Shown: positions 15,661 to 64,000 of the stretch, piece after piece
Numbering within the stretch: the first letter of the stretch is position 1
Layout of the letters: every line of letters begins with the position of its first letter
Origin: Patescibacteria group bacterium
GTDB lineage: Bacteria > Patescibacteriota > Patescibacteriia > JACRDY01
Direction: 5' to 3'
Length of the DNA: 64,000 nt
Assembly (NCBI GenBank): GCA_041671565.1
Contig: JBAZBH010000003.1
Span: 572-64,571, forward strand
Program-made: the position numbers and the translations under genes
The notes under the pieces: generated by a model
What the model was told of the DNA's origin: nothing
The model's input: only the letters and a program-made list of their open reading frames with translations
The model's database searches: none

Positions 15661-15665
15661 TACAT

Positions 15666-16187: not shown

Positions 16188-16199
16188 ATTGCTTATAAC

Positions 16200-20878: not shown

Positions 20879-21040
20879 ATAAAAGAATTTTTAATTTAAA
20901 ATTTCTAATTTTTAATCAATTTTTAAGGACTAATTTCTAATTTTAAAGGCTACAATAGAGTTCGTGGTTATTTAAAATTAAAAATTATAAATTCATTAAA
21001 AATTAAGAATTTTAAATTAAAAATTGCAATTCTCCCTGTT

Positions 21041-24345: not shown

Positions 24346-24428
24346 CAAGGATTGAAAGTAGCGGAGTGACACAGCCTCTGGCTGTGTTATAGTAAAGGCA
24401 GTAATTTTCTAAAAATAATTTTGAGTAT

Positions 24429-24500
24429 TCGGGGGTAGCTCAGTGGTAGAGCAGGTGGCTGTTAACCACCTTGTCGCAGGTTCGATCCCTGTCCCCCGAG
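24429..24500 (+). tRNA. tRNA-Asn (anticodon GTT)
   Basis: Cloverleaf by eye: acceptor TCGGGGG/CCCCCGA, D-arm GCTCAGTGGTAGAGC, anticodon loop CTGTTAA, T-loop GGTTCGATCC. Confidence 0.7.
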
Positions 24501-24524
24501 TTCTCAGAATTATTTTTTTTGCTC

Positions 24525-29752: not shown

Positions 29753-29826
29753 AATGTGGAATATGGTATATGGTATGTCGTATGCCGCTATATACTATAT
29801 ACCACATGCCATATTCCACATTCCAA
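29753..29826. repeat. palindromic repeat tatggtatatggtatgtcg family (copy 2)
   Basis: See 703-768. Confidence 0.55.
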
Positions 29827-33264: not shown

Positions 33265-33560
33265 GCAGGCGTTACTTTTGTGACCAAAAGTAACCAAAAG
33301 TCCCGGCCTGCCCGCAATGCTTCGCATAGCAAAGCAGGCGGGGGTGGCAAAAAGCCCGATCTTCGTGGCACCTTTCTACTGCTCGCCCCGCTTCATCCCG
33401 CCAGTCGCGACTGGCGGGACGAGCCTCGCAGTCGCTACCTTTGGTTCTATTACCCCTATATATCGCTTTGCGGCAACATATATTTACTAGTTAGCCGAAA
33501 GGGTCGGTTCGTCTCGGGGCTTTGCCACCCCGGACCCCGATTCTGGTTGGTTTTGTACTT
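33265..33560 (+). ncRNA. candidate structured non-coding element, copy 2 of 2
   Basis: See 18150-18410; differs by internal insertions while the 5' and 3' conserved blocks are near-identical. Confidence 0.35.
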
Positions 33561-35969: not shown

Positions 35970-36584
35970 ATGTCCGATATCACTGTGGAACAGTTGGGCG
36001 AACTTATCGCCCAGGCAAAGTCTAAGGACGGGAAGCCGCCGCGAGTTACTCGCGAAAATCTGCAAACCTTCTTGCGCAATCCAGACGGATTCGTCGCGGG
36101 CGGCACGCAGTATCTCCGTCTCCTCCCAGGCCAGCCGCTCACCATCGGTCCGACCAGCGGTTCCCGAATCATCGCCAATGCGGTCGATGTGTTCAAGGCT
36201 GGTATTGACGGCGATTTCAACAACTGGGGAGTTAACCGACCGGCGAAAGAGACCGAAGAAATGGTGATCAGCCCTCCCTACGAGCTGGTGACCAACGGCA
36301 AATTCGCCGAGATTTTTGGCTCGTTGTCGGCAGACCCGCGCCGACTGTGCTGGACGCAGGACCAGATCATTAAATATGTGGTCACGCACCCTGACCAACT
36401 CGGCGCCAACAGGAACTTTTTTCTGACCGAATCGGGTGGGGAGTTCTTCGTGGTCGATGTGTATGTGTACGACGACGGTCGGCTCAACGCCGATGTCGGC
36501 CGGTTCGACCTTGCCCGTGTCTGGCGCGCCGAGGACCGGCATCGGTTCTTCGCTCCGCAACTGGCGAATCCTTTGGCCGTTTAG
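35970..36584 (+). CDS. DGR target (variable) protein; the variable repeat encodes its C-terminal ~40 residues
   Basis: Last 122 nt of the coding sequence form the VR; good ribosome-binding site; C-terminal FFVVDVYVYDDGRLNADVGRFDLARVWRAEDRHRFFAPQL is the diversified segment. Confidence 0.7.
   Translation: MSDITVEQLGELIAQAKSKDGKPPRVTRENLQTFLRNPDGFVAGGTQYLRLLPGQPLTIGPTSGSRIIANAVDVFKAGIDGDFNNWGVNRPAKETEEMVISPPYELVTNGKFAEIFGSLSADPRRLCWTQDQIIKYVVTHPDQLGANRNFFLTESGGEFFVVDVYVYDDGRLNADVGRFDLARVWRAEDRHRFFAPQLANPLAV
36444..36565 (+). repeat. DGR variable repeat (VR)
   Basis: 122-nt match to 36908-37029 with 16 mismatches, each at a TR adenine (11 A->G, 3 A->C, 2 A->T). Confidence 0.85.
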
Positions 36585-36907: not shown

Positions 36908-37029
36908 TTCTTCGTGGTCAATGTGAATGTGTACGACGACGGTCAGCTCAACGCCAATGTCAACCGGTTCGACAATGCCAATGTCTGGAACGCCGAGAAC
37001 CGGCATCGGTTCTTCGCTCCACAACTAAC
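36908..37029 (+). repeat. DGR template repeat (TR), rich in AAC/AAT codons in the VR frame
   Basis: Invariant non-A positions and adenine-only differences versus the VR; not inside a credible gene. Confidence 0.85.
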
Positions 37030-39644: not shown

Positions 39645-39772
39645 CTAACCACGGTTAAAATGCCCAATGACCAAATCCCAATGTCCAATCAATGCCCAAT
39701 GACCAAAGGTGGTAATTGGACATTGGTCATTGAAATTTGATTGGTCATTGGAGCTTGGGCATTGGGCATTAT
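39645..39772. repeat. intergenic palindromic repeat, ccaatgacc family
   Basis: See 5741-5875. Confidence 0.5.
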
Positions 39773-39896: not shown

Positions 39897-40265
39897 ATGA
39901 AAAGTCAAAATCTACTCTTACTTTCAGGTAAATTTATCGCCAAAGACATCGTTGGTAATGTTTTATATTGGCCAGTTTGGTGGTATTCCGCCGGACTGGC
40001 GATTTTTGTTAAAGAGCGCTGGCAGAGCCTGCGGGATTTTGAAGGTGAAGTGGGGCTGACAGTTTGGATTGTTAACTGGTTCAAGCCAATGTATGGCGAG
40101 TCAGATCTGGTTGGCAAGGCGATCAGTTTTGTCATGCGGACGGTGATGATTGTTTTTAAGGCTTGGCAAATCGCGCTTTATTTCTTTTGCCAGGTGGCGG
40201 TGGTGGCTATCTGGCTACTTTTGCCGCCGGTCGCGGTTTGGCAGGTGGTTAAAGGGTTGATTTAA
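39897..40265 (+). CDS. hypothetical small membrane protein
   Basis: Three hydrophobic segments; no family recognised. Confidence 0.35.
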   Translation: MKSQNLLLLSGKFIAKDIVGNVLYWPVWWYSAGLAIFVKERWQSLRDFEGEVGLTVWIVNWFKPMYGESDLVGKAISFVMRTVMIVFKAWQIALYFFCQVAVVAIWLLLPPVAVWQVVKGLI

Positions 40266-40267
40266 AT

Positions 40268-40395
40268 AAGTATTCAGGGATCAGTATTCAGTATTCAGGG
40301 AACTATATCCGCGAACGGTGAATTTGAATCCCTCCCTGATCCCCGAATACTGTTCCCTGAATACTAATGCTTGAATACTGTTCCCTGAATACTCA
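40268..40395. repeat. palindromic repeat, gaatactgttccctgaatact family (copy 2)
   Basis: See 13965-14060; immediately upstream of the clpC-like gene. Confidence 0.65.
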
Positions 40396-40401
40396 TTCAA
40401 T

Positions 40402-43361: not shown

Positions 43362-44486
43362 ATGCTTGGTTTATATATTAATTATTTCCTCGCCTTCTCC
43401 GCCGCGTTCATCCTGGCGGTTGTTTTTACTTGGGCGGCGCGGGCTTTGGCGCTTCACTGGGGAGTCGTTGACCGGCCGGACGGCGGGCGGAAGTTGCACT
43501 TGGAGCCGGTGCCGCTGCTCGGCGGACTCGGAGTTTTTTTGGCTTTTTTCGCGGTGGTGTTTTATTTTGCCTATGGCACTGACATGCTGGTCGGCCAGAA
43601 TATTTTGCTGAAATACCTTTGGGCTTTGCTGGCGGCCGGCGGGCTCCTGATGATCGGCGGCGTTCTGGATGACAAGTTTAATCTCAAGCCGAAGTGGCAG
43701 ATCGTTTGGCCGATACTCGCGATTCTCGCGGTCATCGCCGGCGGCATCGGCGTCAGCAAAATCACCAATCCGTTTGGCGGTTTATTGTATTTGGACCAAT
43801 ATCAGTGGATTTTCTTTTGGCATAACGGCATTGCTTACAAGTTGACATTATTCGCCGATTTGTTAACCTTTTTTTGGCTCCTCGGCATGATGTACACGGT
43901 GAAACTCCTCGACGGGTTGGACGGCCTGGTGTCGGGTTTTGGCGCGATTGGCGCTTTGATTATTTTTCTTCTGTCCACGGCGACCCGTTGGTGGCAGCCG
44001 GACACGGCGCTCCTCGCGATCATTCTTTGCGGGGCAGCCTCCGGGTTTCTGGTCTGGAACCGCCATCCGGCTAAGATTTTCCTAGGCGAAGGCGGGCCGC
44101 TCTTTATTGGTTTTATGCTGGGAGTTTTGTCAATCATCGCCGGCGGCAAAATCGCCACCGCGCTACTGATCATGGGCGTGCCGATCTTGGATGTTCTCTG
44201 GGTGATTTTGCGGCGGCTGTTCTGGGAAAAGAAAAATCCTTTCCGCTCCGCCGACCGCGGCCATTTGCATTTCCGCCTTCTGGATATCGGCCTATCGCAC
44301 CGCCAAGCAGTCTGGGTGCTCTACCTTTTTGCCGCCGGGTTTGGCTCACTCGCGCTTTTTCTCCAAAGCCAGGACAAATTGATCGCGCTGGGCGCGGTGG
44401 CGGGGGTGATGATAGTACTCGGTGGAACTTTAGCAGTCGTTAGTCGTGAAAAAAATGTAAAAATAAAAAATCAAAATGGAAAATGA
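43362..44486 (+). CDS. polyprenol-phosphate N-acetylhexosamine-1-phosphate transferase (MraY/WecA family)
   Basis: DRPDGGRKLH..P.LGG, DDKFNLKP, VKLLDGLDGL, NRHPAKIFLGEGG motifs; start uncertain (43305 or 43362). Confidence 0.7.
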   Translation: MLGLYINYFLAFSAAFILAVVFTWAARALALHWGVVDRPDGGRKLHLEPVPLLGGLGVFLAFFAVVFYFAYGTDMLVGQNILLKYLWALLAAGGLLMIGGVLDDKFNLKPKWQIVWPILAILAVIAGGIGVSKITNPFGGLLYLDQYQWIFFWHNGIAYKLTLFADLLTFFWLLGMMYTVKLLDGLDGLVSGFGAIGALIIFLLSTATRWWQPDTALLAIILCGAASGFLVWNRHPAKIFLGEGGPLFIGFMLGVLSIIAGGKIATALLIMGVPILDVLWVILRRLFWEKKNPFRSADRGHLHFRLLDIGLSHRQAVWVLYLFAAGFGSLALFLQSQDKLIALGAVAGVMIVLGGTLAVVSREKNVKIKNQNGK

Positions 44487-44600
44487 CAATGAAAAATGTA
44501 AAATTAGTTCTTTACCCCTGATACCCCGGCTTATAGTAAGTAGTCAATCTACTAGACATTTTTAATTTTAAATTGTCATTTTCCATTTTGATTTTTCCAT
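44445..44600. repeat. AT-rich palindrome family gtcattttccattttgattttt
   Basis: See 15527-15660. Confidence 0.5.
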
Positions 44601-44614
44601 TTTCAATTATTTCT

Positions 44615-46270
44615 ATGCCTGCCTGTAAAAACTGCCAATCCGCCTTCACTATCTATCCCGAGGATATTAAGTTCTACGGCCGGATTGGCGTGCCCGAGCC
44701 GACACTCTGTCCGGATTGCCGAGCGCAAGAACGGCTGGCTTGGCGCTCGGAGCGGAGCTTACACTATCGGCAGTGCGATCTCTGCGGCCGCGATCATATG
44801 TCCAGTTACGCTGAGAGTGCGCCGTTCCCGGTATATTGTTTGGATTGCTGGTATTCGGATAAATGGGACCAACTGCAAAACGGCCGGGAGTTTGATTTTA
44901 ATCGGCCATTTTTTCCGCAATTTCACGAGCTACAACTACTTTCTCCGCGCGGCAGCCTATTTGTCAGCCAAGGCACGATTTTTAACAGCGATTACACCAA
45001 TACTGTCACCAATGTCAAAAATTGTTATCTGATTTTTGGCAGCAATGATTGCGAGGATTGCTATTATTCCAGTTTTCTCAAGAAATGTTTCAGCGTTAGC
45101 GATTGCACCGAAGTCTATCAATCGGAAAAATGTTATGACTCGGTTAATTGCGAGCAGTGTTATAATGTCGTCGGTTCCAATAATTCCCGCGGTTGCCGCG
45201 ACAGCGCTTTCCTCGAAGATTGTTCCGGCTGTTCTGACTGCTTTGGTTGCGTTAACCTCCGCAACCAGAAATTTTGCCTCTGGAATGAGCAACTGTCAGA
45301 ATCGGAATATCGCCGCCAGGTAGGGGAAATAGACTTGCATTCCCGTAAAGCGTATGAAAGGAATTGGGATATCTTCAATCAGTTGAGAATCGCCAAAGGC
45401 GTGTATAAATATTATCACGGCGTGCAAAATATCAATTCAACCGGGGATTATCTCTCGCGTTGTAAAAATGCCTTTCATGCTTTTGATTGCTACGATGTCG
45501 AAGATTGCCGCTATGTTACCCGGTTAACCGGCTCAAAGGATTGTTTTGATGTCGACCATTTCGGCTGGGCCGGGCTGGAGTCAGTTTATTACAGCGCCAG
45601 TTGTGGCAACAGCGCCAGTAATTTAAAGTTTGTCAGCCAAGTTTGGGGTAGTTGCCGTAATATAGAGTATTCTAATCTTTGCCTTAACAATTGCCACGAC
45701 TGCTTTGGTTGTGTGGCACTGACGCATAAACAATTCTGTATTTTTAACCGGCAATATGAGGAAGAAGAATACCTAAAATTAAAAGAGAAGATTATTGAGC
45801 ACATGAAAAAGTCCGGCGAGTACGGCCAGTTTTTTCCGAAAAGCTTTTCTCATGTGCCATACCACGATTCACTGGCTCAAGATTATTATCCGTTGACCGC
45901 CGAACAGGCGCAAGAGCAGGGTTGGCGCTGGGAAGAAGAGGATAAGAAATATCAACCGGCCACGGTGCAACTGCTGGATAATTTAGCTGAAGTTAAAGAC
46001 GAGATTATTAAAGAGGTTTTAGTTTGTGCCGAGTGCGGGCGGAATTATAAGATTGTTAGCCAGGAGTTAAAAGTTTATCGGGCAATGGACCTGCCCTTGC
46101 CAGCCAAATGTTTTGATTGCCGCCTGCGAACCAGACTAAACCGAAAGAATCCACGGCGATTTTATAATCGGCAATGCGCCAAATGCGGCACGGAAATCAA
46201 AACCACCTACGCTCCCGACCGGCCGGAGAAGGTTTATTGCGAGGAGTGCTACCGCAAGGAAATATACTAA
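44615..46270 (+). CDS. Cys-rich paralog 1 (about 550 aa): conserved zinc-ribbon-like N and C termini, variable CxxC-rich centre
   Basis: N-terminus MPACKNCQSAFTIYPEDIKFYGRIGVPEPTLCPDCR; C-terminus ...RPEKVYCEECYRKEIY; both shared with the genes at 58922 and 60673. Confidence 0.6.
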   Translation: MPACKNCQSAFTIYPEDIKFYGRIGVPEPTLCPDCRAQERLAWRSERSLHYRQCDLCGRDHMSSYAESAPFPVYCLDCWYSDKWDQLQNGREFDFNRPFFPQFHELQLLSPRGSLFVSQGTIFNSDYTNTVTNVKNCYLIFGSNDCEDCYYSSFLKKCFSVSDCTEVYQSEKCYDSVNCEQCYNVVGSNNSRGCRDSAFLEDCSGCSDCFGCVNLRNQKFCLWNEQLSESEYRRQVGEIDLHSRKAYERNWDIFNQLRIAKGVYKYYHGVQNINSTGDYLSRCKNAFHAFDCYDVEDCRYVTRLTGSKDCFDVDHFGWAGLESVYYSASCGNSASNLKFVSQVWGSCRNIEYSNLCLNNCHDCFGCVALTHKQFCIFNRQYEEEEYLKLKEKIIEHMKKSGEYGQFFPKSFSHVPYHDSLAQDYYPLTAEQAQEQGWRWEEEDKKYQPATVQLLDNLAEVKDEIIKEVLVCAECGRNYKIVSQELKVYRAMDLPLPAKCFDCRLRTRLNRKNPRRFYNRQCAKCGTEIKTTYAPDRPEKVYCEECYRKEIY

Positions 46271-46372
46271 GGGATCAGGGAACAGTATGCAGTATTCAGG
46301 GGTTCTTATTTGCCGTCCGTGGATATAGCCCCTGAATACTGAATACTGTTCCCTGAATACTAATTATTAAAA
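46271..46372. repeat. palindromic repeat, gaatactgttccctgaatact family (copy 3)
   Basis: See 13965-14060; directly 3' of Cys-rich paralog 1. Confidence 0.65.
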
Positions 46373-49527: not shown

Positions 49528-49785
49528 ATGTATAATGTTTATATCTTAAAATTAGCCAATGCCGATTTGTATGTTGGGTCAACCGGTAACATTAAAAATA
49601 GAATAAAACAACATCAGGCGGGGCAGAGCCAATATACTAAGAAATGTTTGCCGGTTAAGTTAATATACTTCGAATGTTATTGTAGTAAGAAAGACGCTTT
49701 AATTAGAGAAAAGTTTTTAAAAAGCGGCAGAGGCAGGGAAGTAATCAAAAAACAATTAGAAAACACCCTTAAGGTCAAAAGATAA
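49528..49785 (+). CDS. small GIY-YIG nuclease family protein (YhbQ/COG2827-like), second copy
   Basis: MYNVYILKLANADLYVGSTGN..NR..QH; same family and length as 18792-19049; embedded between tRNAs. Confidence 0.65.
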   Translation: MYNVYILKLANADLYVGSTGNIKNRIKQHQAGQSQYTKKCLPVKLIYFECYCSKKDALIREKFLKSGRGREVIKKQLENTLKVKR

Positions 49786-49884: not shown

Positions 49885-49966
49885 GGGTCGGTACCAAAGC
49901 GGTCAACTGGGGCTGACTGTAAATCAGCTGGCTTTGCCTTCGGGGGTTCGAATCCCTCCCGGCCCA
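49885..49966 (+). tRNA. tRNA-Tyr (anticodon GTA), long variable arm
   Basis: Acceptor GGGTCGG/CCGGCCC, anticodon loop CTGTAAA, variable arm TGGCTTTGCCTTCG, T-loop GGTTCGAATCC. Confidence 0.7.
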
Positions 49967-50342
49967 TATCAGAGAGAACGAATTAGTTAGTTCGTTCTTT
50001 TTGATTTATAACTGGGGCTGATCCGCCGAATCGGCGGACTGGCTTTGCCTTCGGGGGTTCGAATCCCTCCCGGCCCATATCAGAGAGAACGAATTAGTTA
50101 GTTCGTTCTTTTTGATTTATAACTGGGGCTGATCCGCCGAATCGGCGGACTGGCTTTGCCTTCGGGGGTTCGAATCCCTCCCGGCCCATATCAGAGAGAA
50201 CGAATTAGTTAGTTCGTTCTTTTTGATTTATAACTGGGGCTGATCCGCCGAATCGGCGGACTGGCTTTGCCTTCGGGGGTTCGGACCTGTCCGCCGTAGC
50301 ATCCGCCAGCAGGCGGAGCGGTGGCGGATCCCTCCCGGCCCA
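49967..50342 (+). repeat. three tandem ~111-nt units: terminator-like hairpin plus a tRNA-Tyr 3' fragment with the anticodon arm replaced by tccgccgaatcggcgga; the last unit has a 44-nt T-loop insertion
   Basis: Units at 49967-50077, 50078-50188 and 50189-50342; a partial unit also at 49806-49856 upstream of tRNA-Tyr. Confidence 0.8.
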
Positions 50343-53184: not shown

Positions 53185-54192
53185 TTAATAGTAATTGGTC
53201 TCCACATTAGGTTGCCAGTATTTTCTATAGGCTTTATCGGTAGCTGCGCGGCAAACGCTGGCAAAAATGCATTGGTCGTGGTGGGGTAAATTAACCACCA
53301 AAGTGAGAGTGCAGGGTTTTTTATTGCAGGTTTGGTCTTGGCAAAGAATTTTTTGGTTGCAGCAACTTCGGCCTAGCGACCAAAAAAGATAGTCCAGTTG
53401 ATTGTAGTCGCGCCCGGAAGCCGGCGCCAGGCTTTTTATCGCCGCGACGGTAGCCGCCCTCAGTTCATAGTCAGATTTAACCTTTTTTCGGTTTTGCAGT
53501 TTGATTTTCAAATTATTATTTAATATCTCAATGCACCCTAGCCGGAGCAATACTCTTTGCAGGTGATAGTCTACCGGGGGAATTATATTTTGCGGGTCTT
53601 TAATTTTTAATAACTTGGCGCTGGCCGCTAATTGGATAAAAACCGTGCTTTTCTTTTTCAGCGGGTCATTATACGGCTTGATCTCTGCCAATAACTCGTA
53701 TAATCCTTGGCCGTTATTAATCAGCCGGTTGCCGCTCTGTTTTACTAGATTGCTGACTTTATTTTGGTATTTTTGATTTAAGACTTTTGCCACCTCTAGA
53801 ATAATTTTTGACCTTTCGGCCAGCCGGTCAAGCGTGCAATGTTTTGGGTTGCCATCTTCAGAAAAAATAATTTTAAGCTCTTTAGCTAAACTGCCGGTTG
53901 ACAGATTAACTAAATAAGCCGGATCGATTAACCGAGAGTTATTTTTAGCTAAACCGGCAAAAGCGGATTCTAAATAATCCCAGCCTTTAAGATTGAGTTT
54001 TTTGTTTATTAGCGTATGGGTTTGATGGCAAATGGCAACGCAAAAAATATAAGCCCTTAATTTTATTTCTCGGTCGGCCGCCAAGGTTATAAACTCGCGG
54101 CGAGAAAAGGTTTTTTTGAAATTAAGACAGCCGATCAATTTACTGACCCGCTGGCATTGCTGACAGTTAATTTTTAAGGCTGTTTTGGTCAT
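53185..54192 (-). CDS. hypothetical Cys-rich protein, possibly metal/Fe-S binding
   Basis: N-terminal CQQCQ..C and C-terminal CCNQKILCQDQTCNKKPC..C clusters; 4-nt overlap with the upstream gene. Confidence 0.4.
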   Translation of the reverse strand: MTKTALKINCQQCQRVSKLIGCLNFKKTFSRREFITLAADREIKLRAYIFCVAICHQTHTLINKKLNLKGWDYLESAFAGLAKNNSRLIDPAYLVNLSTGSLAKELKIIFSEDGNPKHCTLDRLAERSKIILEVAKVLNQKYQNKVSNLVKQSGNRLINNGQGLYELLAEIKPYNDPLKKKSTVFIQLAASAKLLKIKDPQNIIPPVDYHLQRVLLRLGCIEILNNNLKIKLQNRKKVKSDYELRAATVAAIKSLAPASGRDYNQLDYLFWSLGRSCCNQKILCQDQTCNKKPCTLTLVVNLPHHDQCIFASVCRAATDKAYRKYWQPNVETNYY

Positions 54193-56633
54193 TGCAAATC
54201 AATCTGGTAAATCAAATTGCCGCTAAGGAGGTAAGCGGCTTTATTTTTTTCGTTGATGGCAAAATCTTTGAGCTGGCCAAAGCTGTCGGCTGAGTATTGG
54301 GCGGCCAGGCGGCCGTTGGTTTTATTGATGACCACTAAGCGGCGATTTTGCGGGTCAAGGATGTAGAGATAATCGGTCGCGGCATTGGTCCAGATTTTAG
54401 TGGCGGTAGCGAGCGACGGTTCGACAGTGTCATATTGCCAATCGCGATTTTTGCCGCTGGACATTTTTTTGATCTCCGCGGTGTTGGTCAAAAGATAGAC
54501 ATCGCCGTCGGCAGCGATAGCAGTGGCTGTTTTAAGGTCGCTATCGTCTCTGACCCAAGGGCTAGCGGCGCCAAAGCCGCTGCCAGCCGGTTGATAGCGG
54601 TAAATTTGGCTCGCGGCGCTATTCAAAATATACAGCCGATTATTGTAAATCGCCAAATCGTTAATTTTATTTTCTTGCCCGGCTAAGTTAATCGGCGCCT
54701 CGGTCAGCGAATTGGCCGCCGGGTCCAGCCGGACTAGGCCATTGCCGCCGTGATAATAGGTAATGGTTTTTTGATTAATAAAGCTAAATTTAATTTGCGG
54801 GTTAGTTGAGATCAGATTAAGCGGCGTTACTTTTTTGTCCGCCAAATCCAGGCGATAAAAGGCGCCGGTTAAGTCGTTAATCGTATAGAGTTTTTGGTCA
54901 ATCAGGTTTAGAGAATTGGCCGTGAACGGCTGGCCAATTGCTTGCGGCAAGTCGGCCAGAAGCTGGGGGGTAACGGTGACGCGCCGTTGCAGTTTGTTGT
55001 CTAGGGCAAGGAGCTGGGCTTCAAGCGTGGCGGTGTTTTTTTGCCGTTTGGCAGCGGGGGTGAATTGGCTGTCCAAAACTTTCGCGGCGGCCAAAAGCTG
55101 CCCGGCGCGGGCAGTATCGTTATAAATTAGGGCGCTTTCCGCTTCGCTGTATTTTTGTTGAATTTCCGCCGTTAGCCGATTATAAGTTTTTTGTTCCTCG
55201 CCGCTGAGGCGATTTTGCCCGAGCCAGACCAGGCTTTCAGCGAGAATAATAAATAAAATTAAGCAAGCGACCACCAAAATTTGGCTTTGGCGGGGCCAGG
55301 CTTTGACGCGGTTTATGCCTCGGGCGAGAAGCGTTAGGCTGCGGCTGTAAATAATTTTGCCGTTTTCGCGCCACCGCCGTTTTTGATTAATTAACCCGCG
55401 CTGGAAGCCCAAGCCGGCGGCTTTGACAGAGCGGACGCCAGCAATGCCCCGGAGCAGGATTTTTTGTCCCTCGAGTTTAGCTGCCGCCAGCGGTTGGATT
55501 TTGTTAGCCGGGGTTTTGATTCTAGCCGGTTCTTTGGCGGGCTGAATTTGAGGTTTTCTCGCCACTAAGCCAGAAGCCTGGTCAGCCAGCCGAGAAAGCT
55601 CAGACCTTTTTTGGTCAGCCCTTTTCTTTTGCTGATATGCCTGATAGCCGCGGTAAGCGGTTTGGGCCGTGGTTTTGGTCTTAGCCACCAGCCAAGCGGA
55701 GTATTTTTTAACATTAAATTTTAACGGGGGAGAGAGATATTCTTCGGTTGTCTTTTCGGTGACGACCAGATGTTCTAGTGATTTTTGGGGCAGGCGGATC
55801 TCGGATTCGCCGCGGACTTCGGCCGGGCCGGGATTAAGTTTGATAATAATGCTGGAAAAAGTGGTGTTAATGCTGGCTTCCAGGAGCAGGTCTTTAAGGT
55901 GGCGGGTGGCGGCGGCGGGCTCCAAAGTGGTCAGGGTTTGTTTGATTTTATCGAGCGAAAGGTAGTCTAAGAGGCTGTTGGTGCAAAAAAGCAGCGAGTC
56001 GTTTTTGTTAATCTGGCCGTTAACGATATGCGAGAGGATTTTGAACGGGTTGATTTTTTCTTCCCGGCCGCCGGCGGTATCCAGGATGTTGACTAAGCGG
56101 TATTCCTGGCTTTTGAGCTGATGAATCAGAAAAGCGCTGGCATTGCCGACAGCGGCAAAGTGGACGGTCTCGTCTTTAAAAACACCCAAAATAATGTTAA
56201 TTTTCTGGAGGAGATTAGCGAGCTTGCCGCCCTTGATCAGTTCAATCAGCCGGTCGTTAAAAACTTGAATGGATTTTTCAAAAGTTTCTTCCACCGAAAT
56301 GGCGCGATTGGGCCGGCCGAGGGTCAACTGAATATTGCTTTCGCCGTAATAATATTTTTCCATTTCTTCGGCGAGGTGGCTGACCGTGTCCCAAAGGGCG
56401 CGATCCGGCGATTCAATCTCAATAATGCCAAAAAGCCGCCCCAAAGTTTGTTCTTTATCCAAACTCGGCGTGGCAATAAAAATTTTGCAAGTAGAATTGT
56501 TTTTATCCGGTGAGTAAATGAAGAGTTGGCTGAATTGAGGAATCATAAGAGTGCAGAGTGCAGAGTGCAGAGTGCAGAGCTGAGAAAGTAATTTTTTCTC
56601 TGTACTCTGCTCTTCGTACTTCGCACTAATCAA
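54189..56633 (-). CDS. PP2C-type Ser/Thr phosphatase fused through a transmembrane segment to a C-terminal beta-propeller
   Basis: N-terminal PP2C/SpoIIE-like motifs (..IEIESPD..FAAVGNASAF..); a hydrophobic helix around residue 440; repeated LYILN/VYLLT/LYILD blades. Confidence 0.55.
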   Translation of the reverse strand: MISAKYEEQSTEKKLLSQLCTLHSALCTLMIPQFSQLFIYSPDKNNSTCKIFIATPSLDKEQTLGRLFGIIEIESPDRALWDTVSHLAEEMEKYYYGESNIQLTLGRPNRAISVEETFEKSIQVFNDRLIELIKGGKLANLLQKINIILGVFKDETVHFAAVGNASAFLIHQLKSQEYRLVNILDTAGGREEKINPFKILSHIVNGQINKNDSLLFCTNSLLDYLSLDKIKQTLTTLEPAAATRHLKDLLLEASINTTFSSIIIKLNPGPAEVRGESEIRLPQKSLEHLVVTEKTTEEYLSPPLKFNVKKYSAWLVAKTKTTAQTAYRGYQAYQQKKRADQKRSELSRLADQASGLVARKPQIQPAKEPARIKTPANKIQPLAAAKLEGQKILLRGIAGVRSVKAAGLGFQRGLINQKRRWRENGKIIYSRSLTLLARGINRVKAWPRQSQILVVACLILFIILAESLVWLGQNRLSGEEQKTYNRLTAEIQQKYSEAESALIYNDTARAGQLLAAAKVLDSQFTPAAKRQKNTATLEAQLLALDNKLQRRVTVTPQLLADLPQAIGQPFTANSLNLIDQKLYTINDLTGAFYRLDLADKKVTPLNLISTNPQIKFSFINQKTITYYHGGNGLVRLDPAANSLTEAPINLAGQENKINDLAIYNNRLYILNSAASQIYRYQPAGSGFGAASPWVRDDSDLKTATAIAADGDVYLLTNTAEIKKMSSGKNRDWQYDTVEPSLATATKIWTNAATDYLYILDPQNRRLVVINKTNGRLAAQYSADSFGQLKDFAINEKNKAAYLLSGNLIYQIDLQ
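56536..56578. repeat. tandem heptamer (cagagtg)x4 with a complementary downstream arm
   Basis: Direct repeat in the leader of the minus-strand operon. Confidence 0.6.
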
Positions 56634-56708: not shown

Positions 56709-57350
56709 ATGCTTGAACACTTATTTGGTTCAGGGGCGCGGGTCAAACTTTTACGGTTGTTTTTGAACCACCCGCAAAGTTCTTATTATGTCCGCGAGTT
56801 GACGCGCCTCGCTAAACTGCAAATTAATGCGGTCCGGCGCGAATTGGAAAACCTGGAAGAGTTGGGGATTATTGTTGGCTCGCAAAAAAATCCCAATCCG
56901 GTTATCAGTGAAGGCGCCAAGGCGCCAGCGAAAGGCCGGCCGGTAAAAGCCGCCAAGGGCTCTGGCGGGCAAGAAAAAAAGTATTATCAAGCCAATGTTA
57001 ATTATGTCCTTTTTCCGGAGCTGAAAGCCTTGATGCTGAAAGCTCAACTGCTTCTGGAGCACGATTTGATCAAAAAAATCGGCAGCCTGGGAGCGGTTAA
57101 GTATTTGGCTTTGACCGGCATCTTCGTCGGCTTTATCGGCGCGCCGACCGACCTGTTTATTGTCGGCAGTGTCAATAAAGACAAACTGACCAAACTCATC
57201 CGCCGGTTTGAGCGCGAGCTGAACTACGAAATTAATTTTACCCTGATGCCGCTCTCGGAGTATCAGTACCGCAAAGATATTACTGACCGTTTTCTTTATA
57301 GTATTTTGGAAAACAAAAAAATTGTGGTGGTTGATAATTTTAAAACTTAA
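56709..57350 (+). CDS. winged-helix transcriptional regulator (ArsR-like N-terminal domain)
   Basis: ARVKLLRLFLNHPQSSYYVRELTRLAKLQINAVRRELENLEELGII HTH region. Confidence 0.5.
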   Translation: MLEHLFGSGARVKLLRLFLNHPQSSYYVRELTRLAKLQINAVRRELENLEELGIIVGSQKNPNPVISEGAKAPAKGRPVKAAKGSGGQEKKYYQANVNYVLFPELKALMLKAQLLLEHDLIKKIGSLGAVKYLALTGIFVGFIGAPTDLFIVGSVNKDKLTKLIRRFERELNYEINFTLMPLSEYQYRKDITDRFLYSILENKKIVVVDNFKT

Positions 57351-57912: not shown

Positions 57913-58587
57913 ATGTTATATATCGTGGCGACGCCGATTGGCAATTTACAGGATATAACCGCGCGGGCGCTGGAAATACTCGCGGGCGTTGATTTGATTT
58001 TATGCGAAGACACGCGCCAGACACAGAAACTACTTAACCACTATCAAATCAAAGTCCCAACGCTGAGCTACCATCAGCACAGCCAGCTGACCAAGATTGA
58101 TTTGATTCTGAAGCAACTCGCCGACGGCAAAAATCTGGCTTTAGTCAGCGACGCTGGCACGCCCGGTGTTTCCGACCCAGGCAGTTTTTTGGTCAAAAAA
58201 GTAGTGGAACGATTTGGCGCTGAAATAAAAATTATTCCCGTGCCCGGAGCGACAGCTTTGGGCGCTTTGTTTTCAGTTGCGGGTCTGTCGGGTGACGACT
58301 TTTTATTCCTCGGATTTTTGCCGCACAAAAAAGGCCGGCAGACGCTGGTTAAAGAAATTATCGCGAGCGAGCGGACGGTTATCCTGTACGAATCGCCGCA
58401 CCGGATTAAAAAGTTGTTGCAAGAATTAATTGAGTTTGGTCTTGCCGACCGGCCGCTGGTCGTCGGCCGCGAGCTGACCAAGATGTTTGAAACCATTTAC
58501 CGCGGCACCGCGGCGGAGATTGACGGGCAATTGACGGCGGACCAGGTGAGGGGGGAGTTTGTGGTGGCGGTTGGGAGAAGTAATTAA
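57913..58587 (+). CDS. rsmI: 16S rRNA (cytidine1402-2'-O)-methyltransferase RsmI
   Basis: LYIVATPIGNLQDIT, CEDTR, tetrapyrrole-methylase fold motifs. Confidence 0.85.
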   Translation: MLYIVATPIGNLQDITARALEILAGVDLILCEDTRQTQKLLNHYQIKVPTLSYHQHSQLTKIDLILKQLADGKNLALVSDAGTPGVSDPGSFLVKKVVERFGAEIKIIPVPGATALGALFSVAGLSGDDFLFLGFLPHKKGRQTLVKEIIASERTVILYESPHRIKKLLQELIEFGLADRPLVVGRELTKMFETIYRGTAAEIDGQLTADQVRGEFVVAVGRSN

Positions 58588-58846
58588 TAATTAAAAATTA
58601 AGAATTAATAATTAAGGTGCTAGGCCGTCGGAACTGGGATTAAGGATTAGGAGCTAAGATCCGTCAGCTGACGGACTTAATTCTTAATTCTTAATTCTTA
58701 ATTCTTTTTTTGTGCAACCTAATCTCGCTCAAACTTATTATCGGGATGAACAGCAAAAAAACCGTCAGCCGCGGCCGTGGCTGTATTGGCTGATTTTCGC
58801 CGGGGTGGCGGCCGTCGCCGCAATTGCGATTGAATTGGTTTAAAAG

Positions 58847-58918
58847 CACAGATTTACACAGATTAACACAGATTAGCACGGATCTGTGAGTATCTGTGTT
58901 AATTTGTGAAGATTTGTG
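58847..58918. repeat. palindromic hairpin cacagatttacacagattaacacagat... bracketing the 5' side of Cys-rich paralogs 2-3
   Basis: Near-identical element at 62351-62421 on the 3' side of paralog 3. Confidence 0.7.
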
Positions 58919-58921
58919 TTT

Positions 58922-60571
58922 ATGCAATGTAAAAACTGCCAATCCATCTTCACTATCTACCCCGAGGACCAAAAGTTCTACGCTAAAATTGGCGTGCCCG
59001 AGCCGACAAGCTGCCCGGATTGCCGGCAACAAAACCGTTTAGCTTGGCGCAACGAGCGGTTTTTGTATAAAAGAAAATGCGATCTCTGTCAAAAAGATAT
59101 TATTTCTTTTTATTCGCCGGACAAGCCTTATATTCAATATTGCCCGGAATGTTGGTGGAGCGACAAATGGGAAACGCCGGCGTTAGACTACGATCCCAAT
59201 CGGCCATTCTTTGAGCAATGGGCTGAACTTTTACGCCAGACGCCGCACTTAGCATTGATTATTTCCCATGGGGAAAACAGCGATTACTGCCCACACTCGG
59301 TTTATTACAAAAATTGTTATCTCTGTGTTTCCGGAGTGACGGGTGAAAATATTTTTTATTCTTATTGGGTTAATAATTCTTTTGAATGTTTGGATTGTAG
59401 TTTATGTTTTGATTTGCAACAGTGCTATGAATGTCTATATTGTCGGAATCTTTTTTCTTCTTATTATTGTTTAGATTGCGAGAACTCGTCGGAGTTGGCG
59501 TTTTGCCGTGATTGCGTTAGTTGTCATAATTGCCTTGGTTGTGTTGGTCTCCGTCATCAGGAGTATCAAATTTTTAATCAAAAAGTCAGCTCAGAGGAAT
59601 ATCAACGGCAATTGGCCGAGGTCAAAGCTAATCCGCAATTATTTGCCAAAAAATTTCGTGAGTTTAGTCTTAAATTCCCCTGTCTTTTTGCTGACATTCA
59701 ACATAGTGAAAATTCCACCGGTGATCGTTTGACTAGTTGTAAAAATTCCCATAATTGTTTTGACGCGGAAAATTTGGAGGACTGTGCTTATATTTGGAAT
59801 CTACCACAAGGCGCAAGCGCCTGTCAGGATATTAATTACTCACCAAAAGCAGAAATGAGTTATGACGCCATGAGTATTGTGAATAGTAAATACATATTAA
59901 ATAGCGTCAGTTGCTGGGATTGCTCTTTTGTTAGTTATTCTTGGCAATGTTTTTACGGTCAAAATCTTTTTGGTTGCATCGGCTTAAAACACGGCAATTA
60001 TCAGATTTTGAATAAAAAATATTCCGAGGAAGAGTATAACCAGTTGAAGAAAAAAATTATTGACGACATGGTCGCGCAAGGAATTTACGGAAAACTTTTT
60101 TCAATAGAGTATTCGCCGTTTGCTTATAATGAGACCAGCGCGGCGGAGCATTTTCCTTTAACCAAGGAGGGGATTTTGCGGCGCGGCTGGAGTTGGCAGG
60201 ATAATTTACCGGGTACTTTTGGTCAGGGCACGGTTGGCAATCAACATTTAACCTTAGTTGATATTGATGAGAAAATCTTAAACGCGGTTTTCACTTGTAG
60301 TTTATGCCAAAAAAATTATAAACTGATTAAGCCGGAATTAAAATTTTATCGCCTGCATGGCTTAATCTTACCTCATCATTGCCATGATTGCCGTTATGCT
60401 TTAAGAATGAAACTGCGTAATCCGCACCGGCTGTGGCATCGGCAATGTATGTGCGAGAATGCTGAACATAATCATCAAGAGCGGTGTCAGAACGAATTTG
60501 AAACCACCTATTCTCCCGACCGGCCGGAAAAGGTTTATTGCGAGGAGTGCTACCGGAAGGAGATCTATTAA
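58922..60571 (+). CDS. Cys-rich paralog 2
   Basis: MQCKNCQSIFTIYPEDQKFYAKIGVPEPTSCPDCRQQNRLAWRNER...; C-terminus RPEKVYCEECYRKEIY. Confidence 0.6.
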   Translation: MQCKNCQSIFTIYPEDQKFYAKIGVPEPTSCPDCRQQNRLAWRNERFLYKRKCDLCQKDIISFYSPDKPYIQYCPECWWSDKWETPALDYDPNRPFFEQWAELLRQTPHLALIISHGENSDYCPHSVYYKNCYLCVSGVTGENIFYSYWVNNSFECLDCSLCFDLQQCYECLYCRNLFSSYYCLDCENSSELAFCRDCVSCHNCLGCVGLRHQEYQIFNQKVSSEEYQRQLAEVKANPQLFAKKFREFSLKFPCLFADIQHSENSTGDRLTSCKNSHNCFDAENLEDCAYIWNLPQGASACQDINYSPKAEMSYDAMSIVNSKYILNSVSCWDCSFVSYSWQCFYGQNLFGCIGLKHGNYQILNKKYSEEEYNQLKKKIIDDMVAQGIYGKLFSIEYSPFAYNETSAAEHFPLTKEGILRRGWSWQDNLPGTFGQGTVGNQHLTLVDIDEKILNAVFTCSLCQKNYKLIKPELKFYRLHGLILPHHCHDCRYALRMKLRNPHRLWHRQCMCENAEHNHQERCQNEFETTYSPDRPEKVYCEECYRKEIY

Positions 60572-60672
60572 ATATATTAAAAATTAAAAATCAAATAGCA
60601 AAAAGACATAGTAAAAATTAAAAATAGCCATCCAAATTTTTACTATTTGATTTTTAATTTTTTATATATTTC
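60572..60672. repeat. AT-rich palindrome between paralogs 2 and 3
   Basis: aaaaattaaaaatcaaatagcaaaaag..aatttttactatttgatttttaatttt. Confidence 0.55.
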
Positions 60673-62349
60673 ATGCCTAGCTGTAAAAACTGTAATCAAT
60701 TTTTCACCATCTACCCCGAGGACCAAAAGTTCTACGCTAAGATTGGCGTGCCCGAGCCGACCGAATGCCCGGACTGTCGGCAACAACGGCGTATTGGCTG
60801 GCGGAATTTTTTTAATTTGTATGAACGAAAGTGTGAGCTGACTGGCGCGAAAATTATCTCGATGTTCGGCCCGGAGCCGGGGTATAAAGTAATCAACCCG
60901 AAAGACTGGTACTCGGATAAATGGAATCCGCTGGATTACGGTCGCGATTATGATTTTAGTAAATCCTTTTTCAGCCAGTTTGCCGAGCTTTACCGGGCGA
61001 TACCGCATATGGCGCTGATCCAATTAAATTGTTATAACAGCGATTATTGCAATATCATCGGCAACGCTAAAGGTTGTTATATGATGTTTGGTTGTGTGAA
61101 TTCGGAAAACTGCCTTTACGGCCATGTCGTTTGGCAGTGCCACGATTGTTATGATTGCTTGTATTTGCGGAAATGCGAGCTTTGTTATCAGGCGATTGAC
61201 TGCGACGAGTCTTACGGTTTGTTTTACTGTAGCGATTGCGCTGGTTGTAATAACTGCCGCTATACTTACCACTGCAAGGGTTGCCAGGATTGTGTTGGTT
61301 GTTACGGCCTGATCAATCAGCGGAATTATGTCTTGAACCAACCGACGGCCAATGGCGATGATTTCCAGGTTAAGGCGGCGGCATTCATGGCTTTAGGCGA
61401 AAAAGAAAAAGCCGCCAGAATCGCGGAATTAAAACGAACCGTGCCGGTTAAAGAAAGGGAAATGGTGGGCGCAGTGAATTGTAGCGGCAATTATATCTAT
61501 CACAGCAAAAATTGCCACGATGCTTATGATGTTAAAGATTGCGAGGATTGCCGTTATGCCTCTTCGATGGAGTTTCATAAAGACGCTTACGATGTCAGTT
61601 TTACCGCTTGGCGCGGGGAACTAATGTACAATAATCTGACCACTCATGGCCGCAAGATGATCGGCTGCCACCATTGCTTTAGCCAGACGGAAAATTTGTG
61701 TTATTGCCAAGAAACCAACTCGGTTAAAGATTGCTTCGGTTGTATAGGCCTACACAACAAAGAGCAGTATTGCATTTTGAATAAAAAATATTCCGAAGGC
61801 GAATACAATAGTTTGAAAGAAAAGATTATTAAACAAATGACGGCAGCCCCAGCATCCCAGCATGCGCGGGACAAGTCCGCGGGGCAAGTGGGGGAATGGG
61901 GCGAATTTTTTCCGCTCGCTGACTCGCCTTACAGTTATAATGAAAGTATTGTTAATGAATACTTTCCCTTAACTAAAGAGCAGGCGACAGCCAAAGGCTA
62001 CCGCTGGTTGGACCGCAACCAGCGCGAATACCAGCCGCAGAGTTACCAAATGCCGGCCGATATTAAAGAAGTAAAAGACGAAATTTTGCAAGAAGTTTTG
62101 GCTTGCGTTAAATGCGGACGGAATTATAAACTGGTTAAGCCCGAGTTGGATTTTTATCGCCAATATAATCTGCTGGCGCCGACGGAATGCTTCTACTGCC
62201 GGAACGAGGCCAGGCTAGCAAAACGCAACCCGCGCAAGTTATTTATTCGGCAATGCGGTTTTTGCGGCAAAGAAATCAACACCACCTACGCGCCGGACCG
62301 GCCGGAGAAGGTTTATTGCGAGGAGTGCTATCGGAAAGAAATATATTAA
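60673..62349 (+). CDS. Cys-rich paralog 3
   Basis: MPSCKNCNQFFTIYPEDQKFYAKIGVPEPTECPDCRQQRR...; C-terminus identical in style. Confidence 0.6.
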   Translation: MPSCKNCNQFFTIYPEDQKFYAKIGVPEPTECPDCRQQRRIGWRNFFNLYERKCELTGAKIISMFGPEPGYKVINPKDWYSDKWNPLDYGRDYDFSKSFFSQFAELYRAIPHMALIQLNCYNSDYCNIIGNAKGCYMMFGCVNSENCLYGHVVWQCHDCYDCLYLRKCELCYQAIDCDESYGLFYCSDCAGCNNCRYTYHCKGCQDCVGCYGLINQRNYVLNQPTANGDDFQVKAAAFMALGEKEKAARIAELKRTVPVKEREMVGAVNCSGNYIYHSKNCHDAYDVKDCEDCRYASSMEFHKDAYDVSFTAWRGELMYNNLTTHGRKMIGCHHCFSQTENLCYCQETNSVKDCFGCIGLHNKEQYCILNKKYSEGEYNSLKEKIIKQMTAAPASQHARDKSAGQVGEWGEFFPLADSPYSYNESIVNEYFPLTKEQATAKGYRWLDRNQREYQPQSYQMPADIKEVKDEILQEVLACVKCGRNYKLVKPELDFYRQYNLLAPTECFYCRNEARLAKRNPRKLFIRQCGFCGKEINTTYAPDRPEKVYCEECYRKEIY

Positions 62350-62350
62350 A

Positions 62351-62421
62351 CACAGATTTACACAGATTAACACAGATACTCACGGATCTGTGCTGATCTG
62401 TGTAAATCTGTGAAATCTGTG
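62351..62421. repeat. palindromic hairpin cacagattta... (3' bracket)
   Basis: See 58847-58918. Confidence 0.7.
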
Positions 62422-62425
62422 TTTT

Positions 62426-64000
62426 ATGAATGATCCTTTTGTCATCCGCGGGGATAAAATCAAGGGCGCCAGCTTGTCGCGCGATAAGCGGCTAAGTTGG
62501 ACCGAAGGGATTTTTGAAACCGCCGGCTCGGGCCAAATGACGCTCGGTTCGGAACGGAGCCAATTTTTGGGTTCGGCGATTTCGGAAAAGAAGATTAAGT
62601 TGTTTTTAGTTATCAGTTTATTGCTTCTGGCTTCGCTTCTGGGGCGGAGTTTTTATTTGCAGACGGTCAAAGGCGCCTATTACCACAATCTGGCCGAGGG
62701 CAATCGGCTGAGAATTTCTTCGCTACCGGCTTCGCGCGGCGTGATTTTTGACCGGACCGGTCAGCAACTAGTTAAAAATGTTCCGGATTTTAATTTATTA
62801 ATCACCCCGGCCGATTTGCCGGCTGACACCGTGGCGCGCCTCAAAGTTTTGACGGAAGTTTCTAGCTTGGTTAATTTGTCGGTGGCGGAAATCAATAATT
62901 TAATCAGCGAACACGAGCCTTATATTTATCAGCCGATTTTGATCAAATCCGGTTTGGATTATCAAGCGACGCTGCGCGGCAAACTGAAAGAAGCCGAGTG
63001 GCCGGGTGTTAGCCTGACCACCGGTTCGCGGCGCGATTATCTTTTGGCTTCAGGCGAGGAAACGGCTTATTCTTTGGCGCATGTCCTTGGTTATAACGGC
63101 CAACTGTCCAAAACTGAATACGAAAAGCACGCCGGCGAAGGCTATTTTCTTAACGATCAAATCGGCAAAACCGGGCTGGAGTTATATTATGAAAAAGAGC
63201 TCAAGGGTTATAATGGCCAAAAACAAGTGGAAGTTGACGCGCTGGGCCGGGAGAAGGAGATTATCGGCCAAACCGAAGCCATCGCCGGCCAAGATTTAAT
63301 TTTAAATATTGATTACGGTTTGCAAAAGGAAGCCGAGAAGGCTCTCAGCGCCGCTTTAAAATCTTTTAATAAGCGCCGCGGAGCGGTGGTGGCGCTAAAT
63401 CCGCAAAACGGCGAAATTTTGGCTTTAGTGTCACTGCCGGCCTATGACAGCAATAAGTTTTCCGCCGGCATTTCCGTGGCCGATTATAGTCTCTTAAGCA
63501 ATAATCCAGAGCGGCCGCTCTTTAACCGCGTTGTTAGCGGCGCTTATCCGTCCGGTTCCACCATCAAGCCGGTGATGGCGACAGCGGCTTTAGCCGAAGG
63601 TGTAATCACGCCGCAGACGACATTCAATAGCGTGGGCGGGATAAAAATTTTGGATTGGTTTTTTCCGGATTGGAAAGCCGGCGGCCATGGCATTACTAAT
63701 GTTTATAAGGCGATTGCCGAATCAGTCAACACTTTTTTTTACATGATTGGCGGCGGTTATCCGGCAGATGGCAATCCGACGCACCCTTATCAGTTTAATG
63801 GCTTGGGGCCGGAGAAAATTACCGCCTGGCTGAAAAAATTTGGCCTGGGGACGGCGACGGGGATTGATTTGAACGGCGAAGCCGACGGCTTTGTGCCATC
63901 GGTGGAGTGGAAAAATAAAACTACCGGCGAGCAGTGGTATATCGGCGACACTTACAATTTGTCCATTGGCCAGGGCAACTTACTGGTGACGCCTTTGCAA
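62426..64000 (+). CDS. penicillin-binding protein 2 / FtsI-type transpeptidase (3' end outside the window)
   Basis: N-terminal transmembrane helix, dimerisation domain, SxxK-region context (..GSTIKP..), frame open to the window edge. Confidence 0.75.
   Translation, partial: MNDPFVIRGDKIKGASLSRDKRLSWTEGIFETAGSGQMTLGSERSQFLGSAISEKKIKLFLVISLLLLASLLGRSFYLQTVKGAYYHNLAEGNRLRISSLPASRGVIFDRTGQQLVKNVPDFNLLITPADLPADTVARLKVLTEVSSLVNLSVAEINNLISEHEPYIYQPILIKSGLDYQATLRGKLKEAEWPGVSLTTGSRRDYLLASGEETAYSLAHVLGYNGQLSKTEYEKHAGEGYFLNDQIGKTGLELYYEKELKGYNGQKQVEVDALGREKEIIGQTEAIAGQDLILNIDYGLQKEAEKALSAALKSFNKRRGAVVALNPQNGEILALVSLPAYDSNKFSAGISVADYSLLSNNPERPLFNRVVSGAYPSGSTIKPVMATAALAEGVITPQTTFNSVGGIKILDWFFPDWKAGGHGITNVYKAIAESVNTFFYMIGGGYPADGNPTHPYQFNGLGPEKITAWLKKFGLGTATGIDLNGEADGFVPSVEWKNKTTGEQWYIGDTYNLSIGQGNLLVTPLQ

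Follow-up and report, generated by a model that had tools for sequence, protein, structure and literature searches.

Much of bacterial diversity falls to the Patescibacteria, very small symbionts with genomes of about 1 Mb and lineage-specific proteins that are for the most part unexplained. The present study concerns three cysteine-rich paralogous genes in a 64,000-nucleotide stretch of DNA from one such bacterium (positions 572 to 64,571 of contig JBAZBH010000003.1, assembly GCA_041671565.1), which is referred to below, at its full length, as the window and to which coordinates refer unless another contig is named. The nearest described relatives of the encoded proteins are the 'probable treble clef' domains zf_Tbcl (PF13451), zf_Tbcl_2 (PF23477), and TIGR04272 (CxxC-x17-CxxC). 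As in these domains, the termini of the family carry CxxC...CxxC pairs and an F-x-I-x3-D-x2-FY-x-K motif that precedes a basic helix; unlike these small domains, the family has two double modules placed around a 380-residue core that matches no profile. The structures with which the core was compared are narrow beta-solenoids, namely the antifreeze proteins of Tenebrio (1EZG) and the spruce budworm (1M8N), the ryegrass ice-binding protein (3ULT), and CsgA (8C50). A further point of reference is a 2025 survey covering the Candidate Phyla Radiation (CPR), in most of whose genomes orphan coupling-protein homologs occur with no known role; 5,713 VirD4-type homologs were counted in 2,918 CPR genomes, 148 of them near virB4, and the authors consider a possible exaptation of these homologs for another role (PMC12102498).

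We read the three genes, with a probability of roughly 40%, as encoding cytoplasmic proteins with terminal zinc ribbons and a central cysteine-ladder solenoid, whose role would be that of a binding scaffold with ties to soluble VirD4-like ATPases, the gene ends having been gene-converted and the adjoining hairpins being general repeats of the genome. This reading corrects an original prediction made from the letters of the window, in that the centre is no hypervariable cassette and the hairpins appear to belong to the genome rather than to the genes.

The gene family and the architecture of its proteins

The prediction of three cysteine-rich paralogs of about 550-560 residues was borne out by three intact open reading frames (ORFs) of 549-558 residues, all on the forward strand. 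Paralog A (44615..46270; 551 residues) is identical to P0001, a hypothetical protein of a Patescibacteria metagenome-assembled genome (MAG), and a TTG at 44573 was rejected as its start because homologs begin at MPxCKxC. For paralog B (58922..60571; 549 residues), the ATG was preferred over a GTG at 58916 because the same-genome paralog D3 also begins MQCKNCQ, and paralog C (60673..62349; 558 residues) lies in tandem with B. Both B and C are 40-43% identical to A. A second contig of the same genome, L095, shares the hairpin motifs of the window and holds three further paralogs, D2, D3, and D4, which brings the count for the genome to six or more. Complete ORFs with a start codon were found for A, B, C, D2, and D3.

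The view of these genes as members of a multigene family held far beyond the window, with tandem arrays as the usual arrangement. A search with A returned 3,810 matches, the best 120 of which are 527-590 residues long, cover 97-100% of A, derive without exception from Patescibacteria, are 40-61% identical to A (leaving out P0001, at 100%), and bear the names 'hypothetical' or 'zinc-ribbon domain containing'. When 1.84 billion representatives were searched with a profile, 2,492 clusters (50% identity) were recovered at E<=1e-30, and at least 548 loci matched in species-representative genomes. The family spans Peribacteria/Peregrinibacteria, Gracilibacteria, Abawacabacteria, Saccharibacteria, Paceibacteria, and others. 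Few members fall outside Patescibacteria; one, L080, is full-length and lies on a 1.87-Mb Bdellovibrionota contig with 57% G+C at the locus, having possibly reached this MAG of a non-CPR predatory bacterium by horizontal transfer. The genes thus belong to an unnamed family of about 550 residues that is essentially specific to Patescibacteria. Two to three full-length copies stand within 3 kb at 44 of the 84 loci fetched, and on one contig six copies adjoin one another, with a minimum of nine over 21 kb. For a genome of about 1 Mb, this means setting aside no fewer than six genes of 1.65 kb in the present case, and no fewer than nine across 21 kb elsewhere. One member, P0134, is 731 residues long and bears a long N-terminal extension that by eye resembles a GNAT acetyltransferase, a single case that says nothing on function.

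Each terminal module of A contains two Cys4 sites. The N-terminal double zinc module (residues 1-84; 44615..44866, forward strand) contains site 1 (C4, C7, C32, C35) and site 2 (C54, C57, C75, C78), and is homologous to the basic C-terminal double module (residues 466-551; 46010..46267, forward strand), residues 1-84 and 468-551 aligning at 32% identity with a BLASTP E=4e-17. The outermost sites, 1 and 4 (C4, C7, C32, C35; C521, C524, C542, C545), are 90-100% conserved in the family. Site 3 is complete in 70% of members and site 2 in 22%, the latter being present in A and B and degenerate in C, as in most of the family; the cysteines of these optional sites (C57, C75, C78; C474, C502) co-occur with r=1.00. 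Against PF13451, the N-termini of B and C score 28.3 bits, above the Pfam gathering cut-off of 24, and the N-terminus of A, which has no match of its own, yet aligns with them column for column; 32 of the 70 family members scanned match this model. The C-termini of A and C score 25.9 and 21.6 bits against PF23477 (cut-off 27), which matches 56 of the 70 members at E<=0.1, and 21.5 and 16.9 bits against TIGR04272 (cut-off 36), in each case below the cut-off. The mean net charge across the family is +6.5 for the C-terminal module and -6.3 for the linker that precedes it. A lone 98-residue protein on L098 (189-485 of that contig), near a large array of the family, consists of a zf_Tbcl and zf_Tbcl_2 pair only, which suggests that the terminal module is an autonomous unit.

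When A, B, C, and the 70 family members were scanned against Pfam, NCBIfam, and PADLOC, these terminal zinc models were the only profiles found; the centre stayed without any match and no well-known enzyme family was matched, in agreement with the prediction of an unfamiliar family. A search of PDB sequences with the family profile gave just weak LIM-like matches to the last zinc ribbon. Between the modules, the coordinates of A (all forward strand) run as follows. A conserved aromatic/acidic junction (DFDFxRPFFxQF ... NSDY; residues 85-124; 44867..44986), with near-invariant columns and a model helix at residues 99-109, leads into solenoid half 1 (residues 125-226; 44987..45292), about 34 consecutive (Cys/Ser/Val)-x-x triplets delimited by period-3 cysteine columns, autocorrelation, and a match to the phage profile phrog_15341, and ending in CxxCxxCxxC (C203, C206, C209, C212). 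Two helices, the most variable segment of the family (residues 227-262; 45293..45400), separate it from solenoid half 2 (residues 263-378; 45401..45748). The second half is a duplicate of the first, since residues 137-228 match 283-380 at a BLASTP E=1e-10, and both halves close with FGC-x-x-L...N...S-x-EEY followed by a helix. A capping helix and a highly conserved acidic linker (GEWGEFFP, YNET, PLTKEEA, G..W; residues 379-465; 45749..46009) complete the centre.

As predicted, the centre is packed with cysteine, with family means of 14.9 and 11.1 residues in its two blocks and an overall cysteine content of 7.2-7.7%. The cysteine columns keep a strict period of 3, with 25 consecutive triplets in residues 146-221 of A, and autocorrelation stays positive for each multiple of 3, with weak maxima only, at 12, 24, and 33, as a super-period. 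About ten central cysteines, including those of CxxCxxCxxC, are at least 90% conserved, and the remaining ones are replaced by Val, Ser, Ala, or Thr in other family members; column entropy in the cysteine-bearing phase of the triplet is 1.28 bits vs 1.82 and 2.06 for the other two phases. The phrog_15341 profile matches residues ~118-221 of A, B, and C, only in the solenoid, at E=1e-7 to 7.5e-5, although the biased composition makes it uncertain whether homology underlies this similarity.

AlphaFold2, supplied with an alignment of 122 sequences, modelled A as a single body (predicted local distance difference test, pLDDT, 90.8; predicted template modelling score, pTM, 0.91) and C with its secondary-structure elements in the same order (pLDDT 88.0, pTM 0.89). 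In both models, the centre shows isolated bridges at each third residue and short strands spaced 6-7 residues apart, and the top structural matches, all at low Z, are beta-solenoids: curli CsgA, ice-binding/antifreeze proteins, and left-handed beta-helix acyltransferases. We infer from the model and the periodicity that the centre would be a narrow solenoid with coils of about 12 residues, the Cys/Ser/Val phase pointing inward. The family and its domains were not described in the full-text literature searched, and the CPR protein-family papers found there omit zinc and cysteine; what has emerged is a set of thousands of diverged members with a confidently predicted core fold that has no solved relative. 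The idea of a DNA mimic was dropped, the solenoids being merely mildly acidic.

So many cysteines could also point to metal storage, redox buffering, or electron carriage, with the solenoid ladder (CxxCxxCxxC, for example) binding zinc, iron, or iron-sulfur clusters. The 7.2-7.7% cysteine content, the 92-98% conservation of C203, C206, C209, and C212 together with some six further central cysteines, and a central cysteine count that is stable across the family all favour such a role, as does the anaerobic life of the hosts, in which redox proteins are few. However, most central cysteines are freely exchanged for Val, Ser, Ala, and Thr, as core-packing residues are and metal ligands are not, the variable columns do not co-occur in fours in the way that the zinc sites do (r=1.00), and no ferredoxin, rubredoxin, or metallothionein profile was matched. 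We therefore regard a metal or redox role as improbable.

Gene ends and intergenic hairpins

The original prediction had contrasted conserved ends with a variable core. Mean column entropy across the family does not bear out the variable core: solenoid 1, at 1.72 bits, is as conserved as the N-terminal (1.71) and C-terminal (1.66) zinc modules and the helix plus linker (1.73), and looser conservation is confined to solenoid 2 (2.09) and the helices between the solenoids (2.66). Full-length orthologs of A in other genomes are 57-61% identical to it. The claim of conserved ends stands for the very ends, although the extents given to them, about 100 and 150 residues, were overestimated: residues 1-25 of A have an identity of 0.78 to same-genome paralogs vs 0.48 to orthologs, and residues 526-551 of 0.87 vs 0.75. 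Between residues 25 and 526, identity to same-genome paralogs is 0.13-0.63, and in all windows of A other than the two ends, paralog identity is lower or equal and ortholog identity higher or equal. The C-terminal tail CEECYRKEIY occurred in this genome's copies only, among the sequences compared.

Recombination breakpoints at the conserved ends, which the prediction implied, are indicated in this genome only, both at the codon level and by homogenised blastn tracts. Among A, B, C, and D2, identical residues are encoded by identical codons at 123 of 159 positions (77%) in the first 35 codons vs 566 of 1089 (52%) in the interior (p=8e-10), and at 84 of 129 in the last 24 codons (p=0.005). Between paralogs, blastn found tracts of 84-94% identity at the gene ends and adjacent hairpins only. 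On the forward strand, a 5' tract of A is shared with B (44624..44755; 79.5% over 132 nucleotides), as is one of B with C (58928-59032 and 60682-60786; 87.7%, with blastn giving 88% over 106 nucleotides); at the 3' end, 46200..46270 of A matches 60501-60571 of B (90% over 71 nucleotides), and B matches C (62281-62350; 87%). Two of the homogenised tracts extend into the adjoining hairpin, at 93% over 133 nucleotides and 94% over 106. The first ~35 and last ~24 codons thus look homogenised among this genome's paralogs, most simply through gene conversion, and it is to such conversion of the ends that the appearance of conserved ends around a divergent centre would be due.

That each locus is bracketed by palindromes was also confirmed: each of the five spacers next to A, B, and C holds long imperfect palindromes, which often run from a stop codon to the next start codon. 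The hairpin 5' of A (44450..44612) is related to one at 15520-15667 and to one that lies on L095, upstream of D4; the one 3' of A (46264..46367), of the GTATTCAGGG type, has relatives at 13961-14058, at 40264-40368, and downstream of D3 on L095. Upstream of B there are two, the first of the TTAATTC type (58586..58706) and the second of the CACAGAT type with units ~10 nucleotides apart (58844..58921), which ends at the start codon and, together with the first codons, is 94% identical over 106 nucleotides to the D2/D3 spacer of L095. An A+T-rich hairpin fills the spacer between B and C from stop codon to start codon (60567..60674), and the hairpin 3' of C (62347..62427, also delimited as 62351-62412), again of the CACAGAT type, is a copy of the one of that type upstream of B. 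Flanking arms are 27-55 nucleotides long, and folding z-scores range from -6.9 to -10.3 for five flanking hairpins (58586-58706 lying outside that set) and from -6.9 to -12 for all seven folded.

As a trait of the family, as they had been taken to be, the hairpins did not hold up. The window contains 16 strong hairpins, all intergenic, and three shuffles of the window contained none. Eleven of the 16 lie away from family genes, at 704-767, 8654-8710, 9821-9891, 13485-13602, 13949-14075, 15531-15654, 16102-16193, 20886-21025, 29752-29823, 39659-39770, and 40265-40400. The arms are built of short units every ~7 or ~10 nucleotides (CACAGAT, GTATTCA, ATGGTAT, TAAGC, CCAATG) and form sequence families, 75-94% identical, that are shared with L095 and also occur beside unrelated genes. 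In other genomes, hairpins were found at just 8 of 264 family-gene ends, with 20 in 595 kb; being rare around homologs elsewhere, they are a property of this genome. They are its general intergenic repeats and not part of the gene family, probably terminator-like or resembling repetitive extragenic palindromic (REP) elements, or possibly mobile elements. Rfam matched only tRNAs (n=4) on the whole window.

It had further been suggested that the genes form a diversifying surface or toxin-like family exchanging cassettes through their conserved ends and flanking hairpins. The many paralogs are compatible with this, as is the 84-94% DNA identity of gene ends and some adjacent hairpins between loci, and hairpins occur in 5 of 5 family spacers vs 11 of 38 others (p=0.0045, post hoc), an excess that may derive from co-duplication or co-conversion. 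Part of the suggestion, the recombination signature at the ends, survives, but there are no silent cassettes, all copies being complete genes; the centres have their 57-61% identical orthologs in other genomes, solenoid 1 is conserved as much as the termini, and the hairpin families adjoin unrelated genes and are missing at 256 of the 264 homolog ends elsewhere. Nor did the surface or toxin-like character find support: A, B, and C have neither a signal peptide nor a hydrophobic membrane segment (maximum 19-residue Kyte-Doolittle mean 0.65-1.08), the zinc knuckle beginning at residue 4, and because they lack an export signal the proteins are predicted to be cytoplasmic. Cassette exchange among surface proteins or toxins is, in our judgement, highly improbable.

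Gene neighbourhoods and proposed function

Neighbours were scored within 3-kb flanks at 80 loci (L005-L084), the occurrences spanning several CPR classes. A TrmB-family helix-turn-helix (HTH) gene (PF01978), usually divergent, was present at 22 of the 80, and a VirD4/TraG-like ATPase gene (PF02534, PF12696, PF01935; N-terminal DUF8128) at 11, in 10 of which it lies downstream on the same strand and is usually directly adjacent to the family gene. Given about two VirD4-type homologs per genome, this adjacency is far above chance. On six long contigs, the TrmB gene was found in four and the ATPase in three, and in other Patescibacteria (L096-L099) a recurrent cassette comprises a TrmB-type regulator, 2-9 tandem family copies, and a soluble DUF8128 VirD4/TraG-like ATPase. 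No membrane segment was detected in four examples of these neighbouring ATPases, their likeness to known systems was limited to generic P-loop similarity, with weak HerA and mad8 matches, and no VirB4 gene occurred in the listed flanks of 10 kb.

On this evidence, a binding function can be sketched. The period-3 positions would face inward and form the core of ~12-residue coils, and the other two positions of each triplet would look outward, presenting surfaces that vary from paralog to paralog. A shared binding or docking function would fall to the zinc modules and the highly conserved aromatic/acidic junctions. The protein might then be an intracellular, zinc-stabilised binding scaffold whose paralogs recognise different macromolecular targets, either nucleic acid or protein, and which in many CPR lineages would be controlled by a TrmB-type regulator and work alongside a soluble VirD4/TraD-like ATPase. 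The link to the TrmB regulator and the soluble VirD4-like ATPase offers a testable handle both on the family and on the orphan coupling-protein homologs.

Several observations weigh against the scaffold as we describe it. The TrmB and ATPase neighbours are absent at all three window loci, on L095, and on two other contigs, and in the databases searched no functionally characterised protein was matched by fold or by sequence. The coil length and the inward position of the cysteines were read only from the secondary-structure string and the periodicity, and the central cysteines could bind metal. With regard to the gene ends, the codon-level excess is absent in the arrays of three other genomes (L097-L099), which makes the homogenisation lineage-specific, and within-genome termini are modestly more alike than interior-matched between-genome pairs, the pairs being non-independent.

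The same neighbours would suit a different role, in which a type IV secretion-like pathway would export the proteins as its effectors or substrates, their basic, genome-specific C-terminal end being read by the VirD4-like ATPase for delivery to the host bacterium and the arrays constituting an effector repertoire. VirD4/TraG-like genes adjoin the family in several CPR classes, type IV secretion systems are widespread in CPR (PMC12102498), the proteins have no Sec signal and a basic C-terminal module, and their termini are more similar within a genome than between genomes. That terminal similarity, however, reaches synonymous sites and non-coding flanks, which points to gene conversion and away from selection on a recognition signal; the adjoining ATPase has no membrane anchor, a rigid, cysteine-packed protein with four zinc sites is an awkward secretion substrate, and the window has no VirD4-like neighbour. 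Moreover, most VirD4-type genes are not near virB4, and one cultured species does not need its homolog for epibiotic growth (PMC12102498). An effector role accordingly strikes us as quite unlikely.

Tandem, diversified paralogs beside an HTH regulator and an ATPase with weak similarity to HerA and mad8 are also what one might see if the proteins, together with a HerA/FtsK-type ATPase, were sensors or effectors in an undescribed conflict system directed at phages or plasmids, and the Cys-x-x repeat that they share with the phrog_15341 phage proteins would make the latter a mimic or a relative. Yet PADLOC returned no match for the family, the ATPase matches amount to generic P-loop similarity, the neighbourhood in the window is one of housekeeping genes, and composition alone may account for the likeness to the phage proteins, so that we consider a conflict system very doubtful. 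A broader extension of the scaffold reading, which we find rather unlikely although less so than the effector and conflict roles, would make the family the variable component of an undescribed Patescibacteria-wide module, in which TrmB-regulated arrays are paired with soluble DUF8128 VirD4-like ATPases (the orphans of PMC12102498) and the proteins serve as specificity adaptors or cargo in the handling of macromolecules or within a conflict system, the Cys-x-x solenoid representing a new fold class shared with phage proteins.

The genes surrounding the family in the window encode a family-4 glycosyltransferase, an M16 peptidase, a tetratricopeptide repeat protein, a desulfoferrodoxin-type protein, and a TP_methylase-family protein. 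Others, recognised by eye, are a gene for a ClpB-like protein, one for triose-phosphate isomerase, and a PBP2/FtsI-like gene. Two ORFs, at 54189-56633 (reverse strand, 814 residues) and 56709-57350 (forward strand, 213 residues), have no Pfam match. An 85-residue ORF at 49528-49785, between tRNA-Thr and tRNA-Tyr, looks by eye like a GIY-YIG nuclease. Several repeats are associated with tRNA genes. At 49928-50283, 3.2 copies of a 111-nucleotide unit follow one another at 100% identity, the first of them beginning within tRNA-Tyr (49885-49966), and each unit carries the 3' part of that tRNA and a hairpin of terminator-like form. The repeat may have arisen by true duplication or as the scar of an integration, or it may be an artefact of assembly. 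The tRNA-Asn gene (24428-24501) sits inside 25-nucleotide inverted-repeat arms (24411-24435 and 24493-24517) that extend its acceptor stem into the flanks, and an exact 81-nucleotide repeat (18557-18637 and 19033-19113) lies on either side of tRNA-Ser. Two further repeat pairs of ~120-130 nucleotides are 87-88% identical (18246-18374 with 33424-33553, and 36444-36562 with 36908-37026).

Comparison with known systems

The ATPases that adjoin the arrays are of the same type (PF02534, PF12696, PF01935) as the orphan VirD4-type homologs of the CPR survey (PMC12102498). The survey makes no mention of the present family as a neighbour, and the array ATPases are distinguished by a DUF8128 N-terminus and the lack of a membrane segment.

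With the cysteine-ladder solenoids of the Tenebrio type, the centre of the family can be compared by its clear period of 3, and the two are without significant structural similarity. The phage (Cys-x-x)n proteins of phrog_15341 have the tripeptide cysteine repeat in common with the family; they differ in that their repeats are near-perfect, their length is 149-304 residues, and they have no zinc modules, some carrying a C-terminal phrog_31265 domain. The phage genes concerned lie at 5911-6684 on L085, at 5710-6561 and 6592-7506 on L086, and at 5992-6441 and 6502-7053 on L090, some of them as tandem pairs. Their products had no Pfam match, and the conserved phrog_31265 domain contains WHTCETTHCRAGW.

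The hairpins of the window resemble REP elements, bacterial interspersed mosaic elements (BIMEs), and miniature inverted-repeat transposable elements (MITEs) in comprising several families of palindromes that are confined to intergenic DNA and repeated genome-wide at 75-94% identity. Unlike those elements, they have arms of 27-56 nucleotides built of ~7- or ~10-nucleotide units and often fill the whole spacer.

Finally, the antigenic-variation families pilE/pilS, vlsE, and msp2 share with the present family the presence of many copies and recombination at conserved ends. In contrast to those families, it is the ends that are homogenised here, the centres are old and have orthologs, and the copies are full genes for proteins predicted to be cytoplasmic.

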